NCBI GenBank assembly: GCA_030666865.1
Contig: DAOUWZ010000002.1
Coordinates: 24,691 to 88,690 of the forward strand
DNA length: 64,000 bases
DNA from: a bacterium
GTDB lineage: Bacteria; Patescibacteriota; Patescibacteriia; S139-126
Direction: 5' to 3'
Below, one piece after another: positions 12,802 through 61,978 of this stretch; positions within the stretch are counted from its first letter, which is position 1, and each line of letters starts with the position of its first letter. The position numbers were made by a program, and so were the translations under genes. A model generated the notes under the pieces. The model made no database searches. It saw nothing but the letters and a program-made list of their open reading frames with translations, and was not told the origin of the DNA.

Positions 12802-12823
12802 GCCTTGCCTACCGGCAGGCAGG
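12802..12823. repeat. GC-rich palindromic repeat, family A copy 2 (gccttgcctaccggcaggcagg).
   Basis: It shares aagcctt...cctgcctRccggcaggcagg with the copies at 2422, 20850 and 29270. Confidence 0.7.
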
Positions 12824-12997: not shown

Positions 12998-13996
12998 ATG
13001 AAGAAATTGGAAGAATCAAGAGTAGTGATCATTGTGGCCATTGTAGCTGTCGCTATTTTATTCGCTATGATGTTTAAAACAACAGAACAACCACAGTTAG
13101 ATCAAACAATAAGTAAAATTGACAGCCTGATCCACGAAATCCGGATTATACAACAAAACGCTATTGCCATGGAAAATGCCCGGGCAGAAACCACTATGCT
13201 TGATCGCGCCTTTACGCGCGATATGTTTAATCAAGCTGAACAGCTGAAAAATCAAACCAAGCAACCGGAAAAATTGTCGCTTTTGGATTCTAAACTAACA
13301 AACGCTATCAAAAAATGGACAGCGGATCGGAATATTGAGGTATCCGAATTTGTACCAAATGAACTGGAATTAGGGATTGAAACTAATCAATCTTACGATT
13401 CTACTGCGACTAAAACGGAAACAAAACCAAAAATGTCAAAAAAAGAAGCCACCCGGCTACTGCCCATTAAAATGACTGTATACGAAACCACAATCGATAG
13501 CATCCGCATGGTGGTTAAAGATGAAATTTCCGCAACAGCTACACAGTGGGATTTTTGCTATCAAAATAATATGTTTCAGGTGCCGGAAGTGGATAAAAAA
13601 ATGCTGAAATTTTTTCAGCGTATTCCCAGCTCACGCAATTTAGCAATTCATCTTTATTCGGATAATCTCCGATATTATTTTGAAAATAAGCACGACATAT
13701 ATTTTTTTAACAACTTCGCCGACACGACCGCTTATATCATGGATGCGCTATTTCGTTTTCATCAACAAAAAGAAAACGCGCACAAAAAGATACAGCGGGT
13801 AGCCGAACTGAGAAGGATACTATTTCAGCATCCGGAAATAGAAATGAAAATTAAAGGCTATATGGAATGGCAGGGGTCGGATGAACATTTGCAGATGCTT
13901 TTGGATAAAAATCCAGATTTCCTGACATATTTAAGTGGAATTAAACCGGATATTCCGCCATACACCATCGGCTGCACCAACACTATTTATAAATAA
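12998..13996 (+). CDS. Hypothetical membrane-anchored protein of 332 aa.
   Basis: An N-terminal TM segment (VVIIVAIVAVAILFAMMF). GC content is visibly higher than in flanking genes. Confidence 0.5.
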   Translation: MKKLEESRVVIIVAIVAVAILFAMMFKTTEQPQLDQTISKIDSLIHEIRIIQQNAIAMENARAETTMLDRAFTRDMFNQAEQLKNQTKQPEKLSLLDSKLTNAIKKWTADRNIEVSEFVPNELELGIETNQSYDSTATKTETKPKMSKKEATRLLPIKMTVYETTIDSIRMVVKDEISATATQWDFCYQNNMFQVPEVDKKMLKFFQRIPSSRNLAIHLYSDNLRYYFENKHDIYFFNNFADTTAYIMDALFRFHQQKENAHKKIQRVAELRRILFQHPEIEMKIKGYMEWQGSDEHLQMLLDKNPDFLTYLSGIKPDIPPYTIGCTNTIYK

Positions 13997-14019
13997 TAGC
14001 TCTTTCTGGAAATATATAA

Positions 14020-14041
14020 GGGGTTGCGCTTGCGCAACCCC
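14020..14041 (+). terminator. Rho-independent terminator (ggggttgcgc-tt-gcgcaacccc followed by T-rich sequence).
   Basis: A perfect 10-bp GC stem 24 nt after the stop of 12998..13996. Confidence 0.7.
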
Positions 14042-14269
14042 TTTTAAATTTATTTACACACAGGTCGACCCAGGGAACTCATGGCCGAGAGAAGAGTAGT
14101 GTGTATTATCCCCTCTATCAAGAGGGGTGCCCGAAGGGCGGGGTGTGTTATTTTCTTTAAAATAAATAAATTTTCTACCTACCACTACCTATTACACACC
14201 CCTTTAATTCCCCTCTCAAGAGGGGATTTTTGCTATTAATGTATTCTACAGTTAAAACATAATTGAGGC

Positions 14270-14350
14270 ATTCCCCTCTCCTCCTCGAGTCTGAGTCTCG
14301 GAGTCGATGACCAGAGAGGTGGCCATGAGCTTGGCGAAGCGACGGGGTGT
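14270..14350. repeat. Repeat family B copy 1, which contains ctcctcgagtctgag, the reverse complement of ctcagactcgaggag found at 54754-54768.
   Basis: An exact 15-mer is shared with the region just upstream of dnaE. The ggtcatcg/cgatgacc and aggtggcc motifs are also shared. Confidence 0.7.
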
Positions 14351-14421
14351 ATTATCCCTCTTGATGTATATTAACCTAATCACTATTTATAAATATAAAC
14401 CAATAATAATATTATCCTGCT

Positions 14422-14447
14422 TTGTTACGTAGCGTGCTACGTAACAA
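14422..14447. repeat. Perfect palindrome ttgttacgtagc-gt-gctacgtaacaa. The GTTACGTAGC motif also recurs at 47194-47229.
   Basis: Read directly from the sequence. Confidence 0.7.
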
Positions 14448-14490
14448 GGTAAGTAGCAAAATTTTTGTAAACTAAATTTCTATGTTCAAA

Positions 14491-14522
14491 TCGTAGGGTA
14501 CACATATATGTGTACCCTACGA
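14491..14522. terminator. Hairpin tcgtagggtaca-catatatg-tgtaccctacga, the terminator for the PEGA lipoprotein gene.
   Basis: A 12-bp perfect stem. A near-identical stem (gtagggtaca/tgtaccctac) occurs at 18348-18377. Confidence 0.65.
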
Positions 14523-14596
14523 TATTATTAAATGAAAAACCTGGAACAACGTTCTGTTCCAGGCTTTCCCTCCTTTATTTTAAAATAAACTAAAAG

Positions 14597-17392
14597 TTAA
14601 AAAACATAGTTACGGATTACTCCCTTTCGGATGTAAGTCGCGGCATAGGCACAACCACCGTCACCCCAAACTTTGGCAACAACGACAATGTTTCGCTCTT
14701 CCCACTGCAAATCATTCATATAGAACGACTGGACTTCAGATTCGTCCAAAGTGAGTGGGAAACGACTATCAACTGACAATGGAAAGACCGCTATACGACC
14801 TCCCGTCGCATATTCAGACTCAAGATTGATTTCGTACTTTTTGCACGAAACCTTCCTTAGTTGATTCGGCTGACCATCATCATAGTCAACCTGCCACCAC
14901 AATTTCGGCGCATACACCGGCGGTGAGATAATAACGGGCTGTAATTCAAAGTACAATTCGTTTACTACGCCCTCAATCGCTTTAAACGCCATTACCACAG
15001 TTTGGTAACCATCAGCTTGCAGAATCACCAAATGCCAACCCGGCTCTACAGCATAATTATAAATCGGCGTAGTGCCAATTTCCATAGAATCCAAGGTTAC
15101 CGTGGCGGTGACATTGCTAGTAATATTAACCAGTGTTTCTCCGGGGCTAGATGGATCCAAATCCTTATGAACAACCATGGAATCACCAGGCACAACTGTA
15201 AAAGCAGAATGCCAGGGTTGATAACCATCAAGTTCATACGAATAAGTATGAAACCCAGGCTGCAGTTTTATCCAACCAGTATTAGTTTGATAATTCTGCA
15301 AATACCCATCAAGATACACTTTGGCGCCTGCCGGAGCTGAACTAAACCGTACCCAGGCATCCAAGGTGGGATTTATATACCCGCCTTTGACATAAACCTT
15401 GATAGTTTTATGGGTAATTCCGCCAGGCCCAGATACTTCCAGCGTATAATAATACACTCCAGAAGCTTCCTTAACTTCAGTAACAGACCCGTTAGTCGGC
15501 ACAATACCGATTCCGGAAATAACCGCACTGGTAGCGCCAGAGGAAGTCCACTGCAAAGTAAAAGGTTCGCCAGCCATAGCGGTATCAGGTCCGGTAAATA
15601 AATTAATAACAACCGGATCCGGACTGTCAATAAAATTGAAAGTCAAAGTCTTAAGTTCACCCGAATTGAGCTTCACCCAATTTTTTTGATCAACATAGCC
15701 CGTACGAGTAACCTTAATTTCTAAAACTTGATTGGCGATAATAGTAAACACGTTATCCGTATCACCGACATAGGATCCGTTGATGTAAATCTTAGATCCG
15801 CCGCCCTTATTATCCTTAATCGCCAGCTGCGCTTCATTGTCTTGTAGTTTCTCTTTAACAAAAACTGTAAGACTTTTTGAAGCTTGACCGCCGGGTCCAG
15901 ATACTTCCAATGTGTAAGCGTATTCGCCTGATGCGTATTTAACATCTGAAACGCTACCGGAAGTCGTAACTGGTCCAATACCATTAATAATAGCATTATC
16001 AGCGCCAGAAGATGCCCAGCTTAAGGTAAATACTTCATCGGCTTCTACAGTATCCGGTCCAGTGAATGATCGAATAACAACCGGATCCGGACTGTCAATA
16101 AAATTGAAAGTCAAAGTCTTTAATTCCCCGGCAGACAGTTTTACCCAATCCTTTTGATCGGCGTAACCATCACGGGTAACTTTAATTTCGTGGATCTGAT
16201 CGGCTATAACGGTAAAATAACTATTCGTATTACCAACGTAATTACCGTCAATCTCAACCCGAGATCCGCCATCTTTATTATCCATAACCGCGACTTCTGC
16301 AGTATTATCCGGTAATTTCACCAGATAAACTGTGGACAGAATAGCGGTTTGTCCGGCAGTAACGCTAAACGGAATATTTTTAGATTTATAACCGGCTTTA
16401 TGTACTGCAAGAGAATAATCACCGGCTGATAAACCATTAAAATACACCACTTCGCCATCAAGCATAACATTCACAGAATCAGCTCCAGGGTAACTATACA
16501 AAACTACCTGGTCATATCCGCCATCTACTGCCATCATAACCGAACCGGTAGATGGTGATTCTTCTGGAAAATCAAAATGAAATTTAAGTACATTTCCAGA
16601 CTGAGCAGTTTTGGTGTCCTGTATCGTCAAACCATTTTTAGAAACAGTAGCTGTGACAGTAACACCAACCTCAACTGAATCATGTGCAGACAAATCAATC
16701 GGCGTTTTACCCTGATAAGAGTAATAACCGTTAGTGACAATATAATTAACTGGATCATTATTCGTAGTAACAACCAATGGCACTTTTTCTTTTCCTGAAT
16801 CAATTTCTTTAGGAACCATTCTGACATCAAGAGCGGTCCGTCGCCCATTTATCACCTGAACTTGCCCATAAAAAGGACGATAATCCTGATGAGATAGACG
16901 CACAAAATAATCACCACCTGGTAAATAGAATTTATCAGACGAATATCCGATCGCGACTGTATCCTTGGAATCAGCATTAATAACATAGATATCGGCACCC
17001 TGCATATTCATAGTGTTAACCACAAATATGCCTTGAGTCGGATTATCAGTCAGCTTGGTTAAGGAATTTACTACGAACAACTTCTGCTTATCCGGTTCAA
17101 TCATAAACTTTTCATCCTGAGTATCATACCCAGGGGCATAAGCTTCCATATAAAATTCCTTATTAGCGGGTAATTCCCAGACAGTTGATTCACCAGAATT
17201 TAATAATTTTTCCTGCCCAGTATGAAGACGAATGGTCACTGGAATGGAAAATTTGTTTACTGCTTCCAGCTTTCCGGTTTCTCCATCTGTTACCTGCGGT
17301 CCAGCAATGTTATTCTCCTCATGAAAGGTTGTGCAAGAGGAAAACATAATCACCGCCAGCAAAACCGTTAAAATCACACAAATATTTTTCAT
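14597..17392 (-). CDS. Large secreted PEGA-domain protein of 931 aa, a probable lipoprotein or cell-surface protein with an internal ~160-aa tandem duplication.
   Basis: A signal peptide ending in a cysteine (MKNICVILTVLLAVIMFSSC). PEGA-like motifs include SSAPAGAKVYLDGY, VTRDGYADQ and VTRTGYVDQ. Two near-identical blocks (VIRSFTGPDTVEADEVFTLSWASSGA... / VINLFTGPDTAMAGEPFTLQWTSSGA...) are also repeated at the nucleotide level (15600-16080 and 16075-16560). Confidence 0.6.
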   Translation of the reverse strand: MKNICVILTVLLAVIMFSSCTTFHEENNIAGPQVTDGETGKLEAVNKFSIPVTIRLHTGQEKLLNSGESTVWELPANKEFYMEAYAPGYDTQDEKFMIEPDKQKLFVVNSLTKLTDNPTQGIFVVNTMNMQGADIYVINADSKDTVAIGYSSDKFYLPGGDYFVRLSHQDYRPFYGQVQVINGRRTALDVRMVPKEIDSGKEKVPLVVTTNNDPVNYIVTNGYYSYQGKTPIDLSAHDSVEVGVTVTATVSKNGLTIQDTKTAQSGNVLKFHFDFPEESPSTGSVMMAVDGGYDQVVLYSYPGADSVNVMLDGEVVYFNGLSAGDYSLAVHKAGYKSKNIPFSVTAGQTAILSTVYLVKLPDNTAEVAVMDNKDGGSRVEIDGNYVGNTNSYFTVIADQIHEIKVTRDGYADQKDWVKLSAGELKTLTFNFIDSPDPVVIRSFTGPDTVEADEVFTLSWASSGADNAIINGIGPVTTSGSVSDVKYASGEYAYTLEVSGPGGQASKSLTVFVKEKLQDNEAQLAIKDNKGGGSKIYINGSYVGDTDNVFTIIANQVLEIKVTRTGYVDQKNWVKLNSGELKTLTFNFIDSPDPVVINLFTGPDTAMAGEPFTLQWTSSGATSAVISGIGIVPTNGSVTEVKEASGVYYYTLEVSGPGGITHKTIKVYVKGGYINPTLDAWVRFSSAPAGAKVYLDGYLQNYQTNTGWIKLQPGFHTYSYELDGYQPWHSAFTVVPGDSMVVHKDLDPSSPGETLVNITSNVTATVTLDSMEIGTTPIYNYAVEPGWHLVILQADGYQTVVMAFKAIEGVVNELYFELQPVIISPPVYAPKLWWQVDYDDGQPNQLRKVSCKKYEINLESEYATGGRIAVFPLSVDSRFPLTLDESEVQSFYMNDLQWEERNIVVVAKVWGDGGCAYAATYIRKGVIRNYVF

Positions 17393-20849: not shown

Positions 20850-20911
20850 GGAAGGCTAAAGCCTTCCGCCTGCCTGCCGGCAGGCAGACAGGCGGAAACC
20901 TTTAGGTTTCC
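20850..20911. repeat. Family A copy 3, three consecutive GC hairpins: ggaaggc-taaa-gccttcc, then ccgcctgcctgccggcaggcagacaggcgg, then ggaaacc-ttta-ggtttcc.
   Basis: Its core gccttccgcctgcctgccggcaggcag matches the copy at 2422-2455 almost exactly. Confidence 0.8.
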
Positions 20912-29269: not shown

Positions 29270-29293
29270 CCTGCCTGCCTGCAGGCAGGCAGG
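29270..29293. repeat. Family A copy 4, the perfect 24-nt palindrome cctgcctgcctgcaggcaggcagg.
   Basis: Read directly from the sequence. Confidence 0.8.
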
Positions 29294-47135: not shown

Positions 47136-47193
47136 AACATGTAACATACAGCATATAACACGAAACAATTTAGATTAAATAATAAATAAACCT

Positions 47194-47229
47194 TGTTACG
47201 TAGCATGTTACGTAGCATGTTACGTAACA
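47194..47229. repeat. Tandem repeat (TGTTACGTAGCA)x2 followed by TGTTACGTAACAG, ending 1 nt before the prmC start codon.
   Basis: Read directly from the sequence. The motif is shared with the palindrome at 14422-14447. Confidence 0.75.
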
Positions 47230-47230
47230 G

Positions 47231-48058
47231 ATGACTATTAAACAAGCTCTTCTCTGGGCAACCAAAAAATTAAACCAAACTTCAAACTCCCCTCAGCTTG
47301 ATGCTGAGATTCTTTTAGCTTATTTATTCAACCAGCCCAAATCATTTCTATACACCTATCCAGCCAAAAAATTAACAACCAATCAAGAACAAAAATACAG
47401 AACATATATTGCCAAAAGAAAAAACCTTTATCCCATAGCTTATATTACTAATAACAGGGAATTTTATTACAATAATTTTTTTGTTGATGAAAATGTACTA
47501 ATCCCTAGACCAGAAACTGAACTTCTGATAGATGAAGCTATCAAGTTGATCAAAAAAAATAACATCAACCATATAGCCGATATTGGAACTGGCAGTGGCG
47601 CAATCGCTATCACTTTAAAAAAACTATTTCCCAAATCAAATATTTATGCAACTGACATTTCCAAACCAGCTCTTAAAATTGCCAAAAAAAACGCTACATT
47701 GCACCATGCTAAAATAAATTTTTTATATGGAAATCTACTAGAACCACTAAAAAATAAAAGTATAGATCTGCTGCTAGCAAACCTGCCTTATGTATCATAT
47801 GATATTTATCACTCAGTCAAATCAATTAAACATGAACCTCAAAATGCGCTGCTGGCAAAAAATAATGGCATCTTCTATTATCAAAATTTGATAGCTATGA
47901 TTCTTAAATCAAAACAAAAAATCAAATATTTGATACTGGAAATAAATCCAAGGCAGGAAAAACTTCTACAAAAAGACTTACAAAAACTCAAACCAAAAAA
48001 AATCTTAATAAAAAAAGATTTAAATAAAAAAAATCGTTTCATAATTATTTATTTATAA
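47231..48058 (+). CDS. prmC: Release factor glutamine methyltransferase PrmC (HemK).
   Basis: IADIGTGSGAIAITL and the NPPY-type motif NLPYV, located downstream of prfA. Confidence 0.8.
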   Translation: MTIKQALLWATKKLNQTSNSPQLDAEILLAYLFNQPKSFLYTYPAKKLTTNQEQKYRTYIAKRKNLYPIAYITNNREFYYNNFFVDENVLIPRPETELLIDEAIKLIKKNNINHIADIGTGSGAIAITLKKLFPKSNIYATDISKPALKIAKKNATLHHAKINFLYGNLLEPLKNKSIDLLLANLPYVSYDIYHSVKSIKHEPQNALLAKNNGIFYYQNLIAMILKSKQKIKYLILEINPRQEKLLQKDLQKLKPKKILIKKDLNKKNRFIIIYL

Positions 48059-54311: not shown

Positions 54312-54717
54312 TATTTTATACCCTTATAAAAATATAATCTAGTCAGCCATTCATGTAGTAAAGTTTAAAAATTTAATTTATGAGCGTATAAAAGTTTTGA
54401 CTCTTCTGCAAAGCAGAATTCAAAGCTTTAGCGAATAAATTAAATTTTTACTGAGCGAAATGATAGGCTGCAGTTTTTGGTTACTTTTTTGCTGCCAAAA
54501 AAGTAAAAATAAAAAAACCATAAAACATAATAATAAAATCGTTTATAAAACTCGATTATTATATCTCCATTCTTTATTCTCAACGCCCGTTTGCCCCGTC
54601 AAACAATATGTTCTATAATATATACACCCCGTGCCGTTCACCAAAAATTATACAGAGTTTAAAAAGTATTAAAATACTCTGTTTTTTATACGTTTAAAAA
54701 ACAAAAAAACTATAACC

Positions 54718-54772
54718 CCTGCCTACCGGTCATCGCTCTAAGGTGGCCTCGGGCTCAGACTCGAGGAGCAAG
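54718..54772. repeat. Repeat family B copy 2 (cctgcctaccgg-tcatcgctctaaggtggcctcgggctcagactcgaggag), directly upstream of dnaE.
   Basis: It shares an exact 15-mer with 14281-14295 in reverse complement. The 5' half carries a family A half-site. Confidence 0.7.
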
Positions 54773-54806
54773 CAGATAACATCTAAAAAAACTATAAACT
54801 AATTAA

Positions 54807-59631: not shown

Positions 59632-59639
59632 ACAAATAC

Positions 59640-59862
59640 TAGAATATATTTTTTGGAAAACTTCTTTAAGAGAGAAAAAGTCCTGGGCTGTAAGCTTTTT
59701 CAAGAATAAGTCCAAAAAATACCAACTAGACCAGTTCTGCTAAAACTGGAAAATACAATATTGACTTAAATGAGTGGTCTGATGTTTAATCAGACAATTT
59801 GGGTGGAACCGTCCCGCGACCGCGGGACCCCGAAAACTAGATGTTTTTCGGGTTTTTTTATT
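59640..59862 (+). ncRNA. T-box riboswitch leader upstream of thrS.
   Basis: The T-box sequence aatttGGGTGGaACCGtCCCGCG (59795-59818) is followed by a terminator helix (gggaccccgaaaa/ttttcggg + T7). An AGAGA-containing stem I region and an ACC-A candidate specifier (ataccaacta) lie upstream. Confidence 0.55.
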
Positions 59863-60172: not shown

Positions 60173-61978
60173 ATGTCAAACAAAAAAAAATTAGAAATCA
60201 TCCGCCACTCCCTAGCCCATGTGATGGCGGCTAGCGTCTTGAAACTTTGGCCTCAGACTCGTTTTGGTGTTGGCCCAATCATTGACAATGGATTTTATTA
60301 TGATATAGAAATTCCTGGCACTTCTCTAAAAGAACAGGATTTGAAAAAAATTGCTAAAACCATGAAAAAAATGATTCAAAGCAAAGAATCTTTTACCCAT
60401 AGTGAAATCGCTATTGATGAAGCAATTGCTAAATTTTCTAAACTAAATCAGCCATACAAAATTGAACTCTTAAATAATTTGAAAACAAAAGGCTCAACCC
60501 GTCTAGATGATGCTGAACAAAAAGTAATGCCTCAAGGCGAATCAAAAATTTCCTTATACCAAACAGGTGAATTTTTAGACTTATGCAAAGGTCCTCATGT
60601 TGAAGACTCCGGCGAATTAAAAAATATTGCTTTCTGTCTGCATAAGCTAGCTGGCGCTTATTGGCGTGGCAATGAAGAGAATCAAATGCTTACCAGAATT
60701 TATGGACTGGCTTTTGCTTCTCAAACAGAACTAGATGAACATTTAGAATTATTAGCCGAAGCGGAAAAACGTGATCATCGTAAGCTTGGCCGAGAACTTG
60801 AACTATTTGTTTTTTCAGATCTGATTGGACCGGGCTTGCCGATTTACACGCCAAAAGGGACAATTATTAGAAATGAAATTATAAATTTTTCTCGTGAACT
60901 CCAATCAGCTATTGGCTATGAAGAAGTACACTCACCGCAAATGAATAAAGCTGAACTTTTCAAAACTTCTGGCCATTATGAAAAATTCAAAGATGATATG
61001 ATTTTAGCAAAATCTCACTATACTGATGAAGAATATTTTCTAAAACCAATGAACTGTCCGCAGCATACTCAAATTTACGCTTCCCAAAAACGCAGCTATC
61101 GGAATCTACCATTGCGTTATGCTGATTTTGCCAATCTATTTCGCGATGAAAAACCTGGCGAACTGGCGGGACTAACTCGCCTTCGGTGTTTTTCTCAAGA
61201 CGATGGTCATAGCTTTTGCCGCGAAGATCAAATTGAACAAGAATTCAAATATGTCCTTAATATCGTAAAACAAGCGCTTGACACTTATGGACTGGATTAT
61301 CAAATAAGACTTTCTCTTTGGGATGAAGACAACCAAGACAAATATCTAGGTGACAAAAAAATATGGAACAAATCTCAAAAACTTTTGGAAAAATTACTTA
61401 TTGACAATAAAGTCAAATATTTTGTGGCTGAAGGTGAAGCTGCTTTCTATGGACCAAAAATGGACATTATTGCTACTGACGCACTGAAACGCGAGTTTCA
61501 AATATCCACCATCCAACTTGATTTTAATATGCCAAAAAGATTTGAATTGAAATATACTGATGACAAAGGTAAAGAACAAACTCCGGTAATGATTCATAGA
61601 GCTATTGTTGGTTCACCAGAAAGATTTATGGGAATTTTAATAGAACATTATGGCGGTGTTTTCCCAGTTTGGCTATCCCCTGTTCAAGTCAGTATAATTT
61701 CAGTTGGTGAAGATCACCAAGAATACTGCGAAAAATTAAGCCAAAAATTAAAAGATGCCGATATTCGAGTAGAAGTAGATAGTGCTGATGCCACAGTAGG
61801 AAATAAAATTAGAAAAGCTGTTAAACAAAAAATTCCTTATATACTGGTTATCGGTGATAAGGAGATAAATTCAGATGATTTAATGGTTAGGGTCAGAGGA
61901 CGGAAAAATCTACTTAAAATATCCGAATCTAAATTTATCACCAAAATTCAAACAGAAATAACAAACCGAACTAAGTGA
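60173..61978 (+). CDS. thrS: Threonyl-tRNA synthetase.
   Basis: Class II aaRS motifs, the editing/second additional domain (HSLAHVMAA) and a C-terminal anticodon-binding domain, in 601 aa. Confidence 0.9.
   Translation: MSNKKKLEIIRHSLAHVMAASVLKLWPQTRFGVGPIIDNGFYYDIEIPGTSLKEQDLKKIAKTMKKMIQSKESFTHSEIAIDEAIAKFSKLNQPYKIELLNNLKTKGSTRLDDAEQKVMPQGESKISLYQTGEFLDLCKGPHVEDSGELKNIAFCLHKLAGAYWRGNEENQMLTRIYGLAFASQTELDEHLELLAEAEKRDHRKLGRELELFVFSDLIGPGLPIYTPKGTIIRNEIINFSRELQSAIGYEEVHSPQMNKAELFKTSGHYEKFKDDMILAKSHYTDEEYFLKPMNCPQHTQIYASQKRSYRNLPLRYADFANLFRDEKPGELAGLTRLRCFSQDDGHSFCREDQIEQEFKYVLNIVKQALDTYGLDYQIRLSLWDEDNQDKYLGDKKIWNKSQKLLEKLLIDNKVKYFVAEGEAAFYGPKMDIIATDALKREFQISTIQLDFNMPKRFELKYTDDKGKEQTPVMIHRAIVGSPERFMGILIEHYGGVFPVWLSPVQVSIISVGEDHQEYCEKLSQKLKDADIRVEVDSADATVGNKIRKAVKQKIPYILVIGDKEINSDDLMVRVRGRKNLLKISESKFITKIQTEITNRTK

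Follow-up and report, generated by a model that had tools for sequence, protein, structure and literature searches.

Why should a spacer between two convergent genes be so rich in hairpins, and why should 15 nt of it recur exactly upstream of dnaE? The question is raised by positions 14000-14596 of a 64,000-nt stretch of a patescibacterial genome (assembly GCA_030666865.1, contig DAOUWZ010000002.1, positions 24,691 to 88,690; hereafter the window), whose G+C content is 32%. The spacer does lie between convergent open reading frames (ORFs), at 12998-13996 (+) and 14597-17392 (-). An earlier reading made from the letters alone (the sequence-only reading) had viewed its 600 bp as one structured unit and its 15-mer as the sign of a mobile or miniature repeat family, or of a family of structured RNAs. 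Our analysis supports a repeat family for the 15-mer stretch, which is multi-copy, is carried across phyla and has empty sites. The 30-33-nt core that contains the 15-mer is probably a non-autonomous selfish hairpin repeat of bacteria of the Candidate Phyla Radiation (CPR) that targets hairpin loops, similar to repetitive extragenic palindromic (REP) sequences and to Rickettsia palindromic elements (RPEs), and not a 600-bp structured RNA. The family, its anatomy and its host range, its position at loop edges, its nesting, its empty orthologous sites and its in-frame copies within genes are described below as directly observed.

The match between 14281-14295 (+) and 54754-54768 (-) is exact, and none of 100 shuffles gave two matches. 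The shared 15-mer, CTCCTCGAGTCTGAG, forms with CCTCGGAGTCGATGA an imperfect hairpin, CTCCTCGAGTCTGAG-(loop of 0-20 nt)-CCTCGGAGTCGATGA, of which it makes up the 5' half. The other shared motifs had been thought to occur in a rearranged order; when the copy near dnaE is turned to its reverse complement, CGATGACC comes after the 15-mer in both places. The sharing of AGGTGGCC turns out to be a coincidence: in one copy, these bases form the 3' arm of the surrounding hairpin, and in the other they are complementary to bases of the loop. The chance expectation of about 1e-4 that had been proposed for the match is about right for one GC-rich word but ignores multiple testing: the same 600 bp yield a second exact 15-mer match, which is AT-rich (13981-13995 = 14381-14395).

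A search pattern derived from both window copies, CTCCTCGAGTCTGAG-N(5-25)-CGATGACC, for which less than one chance hit was expected, picked up 41 stretches in public metagenomes. When the gap was allowed to be slightly wider, 24 stretches were picked up in species-representative genomes. One of the genome matches, from Gaiellaceae, probably is a chance match. There was no match in viral contigs, and carriage by phages was rejected. The named hosts are Saccharibacteria, Berkelbacteria, Microgenomates/Daviesbacteria and 'Patescibacteria group'. Copies may be numerous in one host: the Saccharibacteria metagenome-assembled genome (MAG) CAZAOA01 carries at least nine cores, and one contig of 6.9 kb carries three. 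Furthermore, nine bases that the pattern leaves unconstrained (CCTCGGAGT) are identical in most copies and therefore the conservation is not solely a product of the search design.

The core reads 5'-C-UC-C-UCGA-G-UCUGAG-(loop)-CUCGGA-G-UCGA-U-GA-3' and folds by RNAalifold into an imperfect rod, with pairs UC/GA, UCGA/UCGA and UCUGAG/CUCGGA and fixed C.U and G.G mismatches. Its loop varies from 1 nt to about 40 nt over the family, and to about 20 nt in the RNAalifold rod. From CTCC to GATGA, it measures 33 nt in 21 and 30 nt in 17 of 50 distinct copies, both lengths being multiples of three. A covariance model built on the RNAalifold structure (R1) retrieved just the two known copies from the window and a few additional diverged copies from related loci. 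Copy 1 (CTCCTCGAGTCTGAG-T-CTCGGAGTCGATGA, 30 nt, 14281-14310, plus strand), which also stands in the family alignment, was hit at 14281-14312 with 56.5 bits (E 4.8e-15). Copy 2 (54730-54768, minus strand) was hit at 54728-54768 with 44.4 bits (E 3e-11); it is more diverged, having a longer loop (CCCGAGGCCAC), CUUAGA as 3' strand and one deleted base, and retains its inner helix through U-A and G.U changes. Over the family, the inner helix tolerates changes from U.G to U-A and from G-C to G.U. None of the 12 core pairs is altered on both sides; hence, the structure is supported as an inverted repeat and not through covariation.

Scans of the window, of both loci and of 15 related loci against Rfam 15, at gathering and permissive thresholds, found no family for the core and returned nothing else than tRNA-Glu, a sub-threshold T-box and hairpin noise. 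In our literature search, no paper was found that gives the core sequence or that ties RPE-like or REP-like elements to CPR bacteria. Two other possibilities were considered. A sequencing artefact was set aside, as an informal judgement, in view of the varied flanks, the in-frame genic copies, the independent assemblies and known adapter sequences. GAGTC occurs twice in the core, and of the two GAGTC+5 positions one falls on the loop insertion point and the other on the core's 3' end; a link with a GAGTC-specific type IIS or nicking enzyme was rejected, because the window shows neither avoidance nor enrichment of GAGTC (observed/expected 1.00).

The position of the core relative to its flanks is highly constrained. 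When the core was excised and 25 nt of flank from each side were joined and folded, a hairpin spanning the junction was obtained in 49 of the 50 distinct copies. By fold energy, 37 of the 50 ranked among the lowest 5% of random 50-mers drawn from their own locus. In most copies, the last paired base of the 5' arm lies directly 5' of the core or at most 2 nt away. CC directly follows the core in all 50 copies and G directly precedes it in 39; the tetranucleotide that adjoins the core on its 5' side differs among copies (CCTG, CCCG, CTTG, GCGG and others). The core is thus almost always located at the 5' loop edge of another GC-rich palindrome (the host palindrome), directly 5' of CC, so that the combined structure is a longer hairpin. 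The commonest host palindrome is CCTGCCTG^CCGGCAGGCAGG, where ^ marks the core, and another one is ATTCCCG^CCTGCGCGGGAAT. One copy, at locus L014, has no outer helix.

Both window copies obey this rule. The host hairpin of copy 1 has its 5' arm CCCCTCTC at 14273-14280 (+) and the loop remainder CCA with the 3' arm GAGAGGTGG at 14311-14322 (+). Once the core is taken out, these flanks give the fold CCCCTCTC-CCA-GAGAGGTGG, in which the junction marks the 5' loop edge, and the fold energy is within the lowest 2% of random 50-mers of the window. This host is a member of a local family of CCCCTCT..AGAGGGG hairpins. On the minus strand, the host of copy 2 has the 5' arm CTGCTTG (54769-54775) and the loop remainder CC with the 3' arm (54716-54729), which reads CCGGTAGGCAGGGG, a variant of CCGGCAGGCAGG. 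It is a palindrome of the CCTGCC..GGCAGG type, CTGCTTG^CCGGTAGGCAGG.

Host palindromes also occur without any core. In the window, CCTGCCTGCCGGCAGGCAGG, a repeat of the CCTGCC..GGCAGG type (repeat family D1), is empty at 2435-2454, 12804-12823, 20869-20888 and 29270-29289. It is by itself a palindromic repeat widespread in CPR bacteria, of which 14 copies were counted over about 0.5 Mb (the window; loci L016, L020, L051, L057, L070 and others), and is translated in frame (LPAGRQ) in some Daviesbacteria UvrA proteins (P0005). The window also has, at 342-406, a doublet that resembles a REPIN (a hairpin-forming REP doublet) and consists of TGTCATTCCTGCGAAGGCAGGAATC and its exact reverse complement with 15 nt between them. 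The ATCCCTGCGAAGGCAGGGAT-type palindrome of this doublet also hosts a core copy within the uvrA gene of locus L042. A weak match to the Rfam 'trpB motif' at 351-467 is probably nothing but the 342-406 hairpin.

Comparison of occupied and empty sites indicates that the core has been inserted. In one Saccharibacteria genome, an asymmetric palindrome, ACACA-CCTGCCTG..CAGGCAGG-GATCC, holds the core in one orientation at locus L065 and in the other at locus L069. Moreover, the Daviesbacteria uvrA gene of L042 contains two core copies and encodes 1087 amino acids (aa) versus about 965 aa in relatives. At one of its sites, L042 reads GATTCCCG-(33-nt core)-CCTGCG-CGGGAATGAC, whereas the orthologous site of two relatives has the host palindrome without the core (GATTCCCG-CATGCG-CGGGAATGAC in L075 and GATTCCCG-CCCTAG-CGGGAATGAC in L076), and closer orthologues lack the host palindrome too. 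Copies are also found inside copies. Beside uvrA in L042 (4040-4170), nested copies show as three 5' halves in a row with three 3' halves after them, and L058 has a perfect core within a decayed one.

Several copies are placed within genes, in frame and without stop codons. In uvrA there is one in each orientation and in priA one in antisense, and a paaX-like gene and a GT2 (glycosyltransferase) gene contain copies as well. In sense genic copies, translation always runs through the only forward frame that is open, SSSLS(D)LGVDD, and the others are translated from antisense frames; if the inserts are translated, UvrA and PriA would contain the peptides SSSLSDLGVDD and GLRLRGRSDSRR. By analogy with Rickettsia palindromic elements, the use of a single frame would be what selection on translated inserts leaves behind. 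Between neighbouring genes of the same direction, about nine copies are sense and about seven antisense. No conserved gene was seen beside the copies.

Among Daviesbacteria UvrA orthologues, differences amount to as much as about 120 aa and arise from low-complexity inserts, which lie at five hot spots (columns ~170-210, 257-279, 305-350, 594-615 and 776-822 of alignment A5), and insert peptides such as VIASEAKQS, PRNDV, LRGND and DSR... look like translated GC-rich palindromic repeats of several kinds. Two MAGs labelled 'uncultured Gammaproteobacteria', CAYHYM01 (L062, L074) and CAZQEI01 (L051, L057, L070), have 36-41% GC and repeats of CPR type. Since CAYHYM01 has a UvrA with 78-80% identity to Daviesbacteria proteins, this MAG is Daviesbacteria-like and its label is probably wrong.

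The window itself offers a comparison of occupied and empty sites at dnaE, whose product has homologues named as Patescibacteria, Falkowbacteria, Buchananbacteria and Parcubacteria; by these names, the organism is judged to be a CPR bacterium. Upstream of the dnaE start codon there is a conserved terminator, and copy 2 with its host lies between the two. In relatives with a 72-75% identical DnaE, the acagagt..actctgtttttt terminator hairpin is kept and the element is absent, 22-50 AT-rich bases separating the hairpin from the dnaE ATG. Relative to them, the window has 82 extra bases, which consist of the host palindrome, the core and a second copy of the 13-nt sequence AAAAAAACTATAA. The two copies of AAAAAAACTATAA (plus strand, 54703-54715 and 54785-54797) form a direct repeat that brackets copy 2 and its host palindrome, and the right copy, 9 nt upstream of the dnaE ATG, restores a TATAAA-like box beside it. 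Flanking repeats of at least 13 nt are found at 0.08% of control positions. This pair may be a target-site duplication; other copies of the family show none.

How such a unit spreads can be proposed from its geometry. An enzyme supplied in trans would copy it into the loops of hairpins formed by single-stranded DNA. Since HUH/Y1-type enzymes nick hairpin loops, they are the most natural candidates, as for REPs and their RAYT transposases (REP-associated tyrosine transposases) or for the IS200/IS605 insertion sequences; this is our leading guess, and a tentative one. An IS200-type Y1 transposase gene is present at L011 (245-706, minus strand; Pfam Y1_Tnp, E 3.5e-33), 111 nt from a variant of the element with a 48-nt loop. 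This tnpA gene has the core repeat on one side only and is itself flanked by GCCGCCCT(G/A)CCGG inverted repeats. A scan for Y1 transposase motifs gave no hit in the window or across about 60 further loci.

Various points weigh against a selfish repeat that targets hairpin loops. No movement was observed directly, and the evidence for insertion is all comparative. A Y1 transposase lies beside one copy only and no enzyme was identified. There is no consistent target-site duplication across the family: no constant length emerged, and flanking direct repeats of at least 9 nt, which accompany 14% of copies versus 3.9% of controls, mostly belong to tandem-repeat contexts. The loci were collected by an exact pattern, and their apparent uniformity is therefore partly a search effect. 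REP-type repeats normally co-evolve with one host. Near-identity over 30 nt across CPR phyla is unusual for them, and functional constraint would fit it equally well. Finally, G.U wobbles at three different inner-helix positions pair on one strand only, which an RNA would also explain.

These last points are what an RNA rival builds on. The core on its outer helix would be a functional structured RNA, such as a self-cleaving ribozyme, a protein-binding hairpin or a processing site, present in many copies and kept near-identical across CPR phyla by selection at the RNA level. The extreme conservation, which includes the bases left unconstrained by the pattern, agrees with this, as do the conserved C.U and G.G mismatches, the wobbles and one-sided changes that keep the inner helix on one strand only, and an outer helix that is nearly always there though its sequence differs among copies; hammerhead and twister ribozymes are likewise multi-copy and intergenic. 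However, the core has no Rfam family even at permissive thresholds, and the hammerhead, twister, hepatitis delta virus-like and C/D-box (k-turn) cores, mapped onto it by eye, do not fit all its length variants. The mixed orientation relative to neighbouring genes, the in-frame copies in both orientations (antisense in uvrA and priA) and the lack of any pair altered on both sides also speak against it. In addition, palindromes that match the outer helices also occur on their own, with no core, and the L014 copy does without an outer helix. We consider such an RNA unlikely, and the family of structured RNAs envisaged by the sequence-only reading is not borne out. In another rival, the core and its host palindrome together would be one non-mobile DNA site of the kind of attC, dif or an origin hairpin, which a conserved CPR protein would use for recombination, nicking or binding. 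The constant geometry (5' arm, then core, then CC), the high sequence conservation and an imperfect hairpin with fixed unpaired bases, as in attC and HUH nick sites, would suit such a site. Nevertheless, copies in essential genes, nested and decayed copies and empty orthologous sites fit spread and decay better, and no conserved gene adjoins the copies, which makes a fixed site quite improbable. A selfish, loop-targeting repeat thus remains our preferred reading. In a bolder form of it, the core would be a new kind of minimal mobile DNA, a single imperfect hairpin that homes specifically to the 5' loop edge (G^CC) of other extruded hairpins, and to that of its own loop too, spreads horizontally among CPR phyla and depends on a dedicated, unrecognised enzyme. 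We regard this form as doubtful; in a more radical version, the hairpin itself would join in the strand-transfer chemistry.

Two further explanations concern the spacer around copy 1. The first denies any element: the region would be two ordinary terminators, and the 15-mer match a product of chance. Two genuine terminator hairpins do exist there. The terminator hairpin noted by the sequence-only reading is real, being a bidirectional intrinsic one at 14018-14043, downstream of ORF 12998-13996, with an 11-bp stem and a T-run on either strand. Moreover, this AT-rich window has many short exact repeats, with 36 direct repeats of at least 12 nt whose copies are no more than 600 nt apart. Yet the failure of the shuffles to reproduce the match and the presence of the same element at more than 60 independent loci of other organisms, in metagenomes and genomes, refute this explanation. 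The other makes 14064-14343 a discrete structured non-coding RNA of about 280 nt, in which the repeat copy would be one arm. RNAfold predicts a long-range helix that closes such a domain, between 14064-14088 (including CTCATGGCC) and 14320-14343 (including GGCCATGAG), in line with the inverted repeat 14078-14086/14321-14329. Single-sequence folding gives z = -4.1 for the plus strand and -5.8 for the minus strand, the segment forms an island of high GC within a 32% GC genome, and a terminator-like hairpin with a T-run lies at 14209-14226. However, the region folds equally well on both strands, as palindromic DNA does, and the folding scores are the only support for the 600 bp as one structured unit. 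Besides, nothing outside the core recurs elsewhere in the window or above chance in about 0.4 Mb of element-carrying loci, no part matches Rfam, and promoter-like sites are no commoner than in shuffles. An RNA gene of this kind is very unlikely. ARAGORN found no tmRNA, in agreement with the sequence-only reading.

The spacer is best read as two gene terminators, local palindromes and short direct repeats around one copy of the element, that is, as a dumping ground and not as one RNA gene. Most of the hairpins and repeats listed by the sequence-only reading are there. Concerning the two CCCTCT..AGAGGG hairpins, the first one is CCCTCTATCAAGAGGG at 14111-14126 (+), which shares its arm family with the host hairpin of copy 1; the second one, CCCCTCTCAAGAGGGG, lies at 14210-14225 and not at 14223-14245. 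With its flanking bases, the latter forms TCCCCTCTCAAGAGGGGA (14209-14226, plus strand) and is followed by TTTTT. A GC hairpin with a T-run, as expected of an intrinsic terminator, is thus found at 14018-14043 and 14209-14226, and the repeat core itself has no T-run. The direct repeat GGGGTGTATTATCCC at 14344-14358 (+) has a copy with two mismatches, (A/G)GTGTGTATTATCCC, at 14098-14112 (+). The palindrome TTGTTACGTAGC-GT-GCTACGTAACAA occupies 14422-14447 and has related copies at 47193-47229, which form a tandem triple copy of the TTGTTACGTAGC palindrome upstream of a gene at 47231. The hairpin placed at 14491-14522 proves to be a perfect 34-nt palindrome, ATCGTAGGGTACACATATATGTGTACCCTACGAT, at 14490-14523. 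At 14536-14567 on the minus strand, the hairpin AAAACCTGGAACA/TGTTCCAGGCTTT was read as the terminator of the PEGA-domain gene from its inverted repeat and a minus-strand T-run seen by eye; the automated terminator scan missed it. The hairpins and repeats assigned to a 'family B' had been joined with the 15-mer. They are confined to this locus in the window and have no counterpart in the element-carrying loci, and are therefore distinct from the 15-mer element.

Three exact direct-repeat pairs are nested around the GC-rich part of the spacer: 13981-13995/14381-14395 (15 nt), 14101-14112/14347-14358 (12 nt) and 14207-14217/14270-14280 (11 nt). The outermost one takes in the last codons of ORF 12998-13996. 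Together with several hairpins that share arms, these pairs suggest that insertion and duplication took place repeatedly at this locus. In Logan, three independent assemblies of the same strain end in the spacer (L001 and L002 at 14138, L003 at 14224), and another one (L006) ends within the repetitive PEGA gene, which suggests a repetitive or polymorphic spacer, or population variants.

As for the neighbouring genes, ORF 12998-13996 encodes an orphan protein of 332 aa without relatives and ORF 14597-17392 a PEGA-domain protein of 931 aa, for which no record was found. The PEGA-domain gene contains an exact 48-nt repeat (15605-15652 and 16073-16120, 468 nt apart) that points to a recent duplication of an internal domain. 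Elsewhere in the window, an element similar to a T-box leader (59632-59835, plus strand) lies upstream of the threonyl-tRNA synthetase gene (60173-61978). Its score against Rfam RF00230 (54 bits, E 5e-9) is below the gathering score of 93, and it may be a diverged CPR T-box.

If the core is a selfish repeat of this kind, CPR/Patescibacteria would hold a layered population of palindromic selfish DNA in genomes that are among the most reduced free-living-like ones known. Its smallest layer would be a 30-nt hairpin that is common to several phyla almost base for base, targets loops and is tolerated in essential repair and replication genes. This would account for unexplained length variation and low-complexity inserts of CPR proteins. 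It may also account for assembly breaks at such spacers and for GC-rich 'structured' islands of AT-rich CPR spacers that are mistaken for RNA genes. Furthermore, the strict geometry of 5' arm, core and CC would provide a handle for an enzyme search and for testing whether the targeting of hairpin loops on single-stranded DNA is a general route of insertion.

Several known systems resemble the core, and we do not claim its membership in REP/RAYT systems, RPEs, MITEs (miniature inverted-repeat transposable elements) or palindrome-associated transposable elements (PATEs). Like REPs and REPINs, which depend on RAYT transposases of the Y1 HUH type, it is a GC-rich imperfect palindrome of 20-40 nt, non-autonomous, present many times per genome, strand-specific and forming hairpins on single-stranded DNA; its 30-33 nt and its at least nine copies in one MAG agree with the size and copy number of REPs. 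REPs have a conserved GTAG or CGTC tetranucleotide at one end (PMC3733652); neither end of the consensus CTCCTCGAGTCTGAG..CCTCGGAGTCGATGA has such a tag. In contrast to REPs and REPINs, core copies are not inverted doublets, no RAYT gene flanked by repeats was found among the loci scanned, the copies are intragenic as well as extragenic, they are common to CPR phyla rather than specific to one host and the unit lies within loops of other palindromes. REP/RAYT membership is not claimed because tnpA is present at one locus of about 60 and absent from the window, and because REP tags are absent.

IS1397/ISKpn1 and members of the IS110/IS1111 family (such as ISPpu9) also direct their insertion to the hairpins of palindromic repeats, but they are at least 1 kb long and carry their own transposase, whereas the core has 30-33 nt and encodes nothing. 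The ends of IS200/IS605 elements and their miniature derivatives, the PATEs, likewise have imperfect subterminal hairpins that are read on single-stranded DNA without target duplication. However, a PATE has two distinct end hairpins and a fixed 5' target of 4-5 nt, while the core is one hairpin with a variable 5' flank and a constant 3' CC. MITEs are defined by terminal inverted repeats and a target-site duplication of fixed length; the core family has no such duplication, the 13-nt repeat at dnaE being an exception.

GC clusters and palindromic hairpins of mitochondria (the yeast GC clusters, the palindromic repeats of Volvox and the coding palindromes of Nematomorpha; PMC2670323, PMC6649704) would offer a further likeness: they are GC-rich hairpins in AT-rich genomes. 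They are reported to insert into their own copies and into other hairpins and to be tolerated in coding sequence. They differ in being organellar, in having other sequences and in lacking identity across lineages. RPEs too are selfish palindromic repeats of a reduced AT-rich genome, with intergenic copies and in-frame, stop-free copies in linkers and surface loops of essential gene products. They are about 100-150 bp long and restricted to Rickettsia, whereas the core measures 30-33 nt (50-70 nt with its host hairpin), has an unrelated sequence and belongs to Patescibacteria. Finally, what sets the core apart from RPEs is its own rule of insertion at the loop edge of another hairpin.

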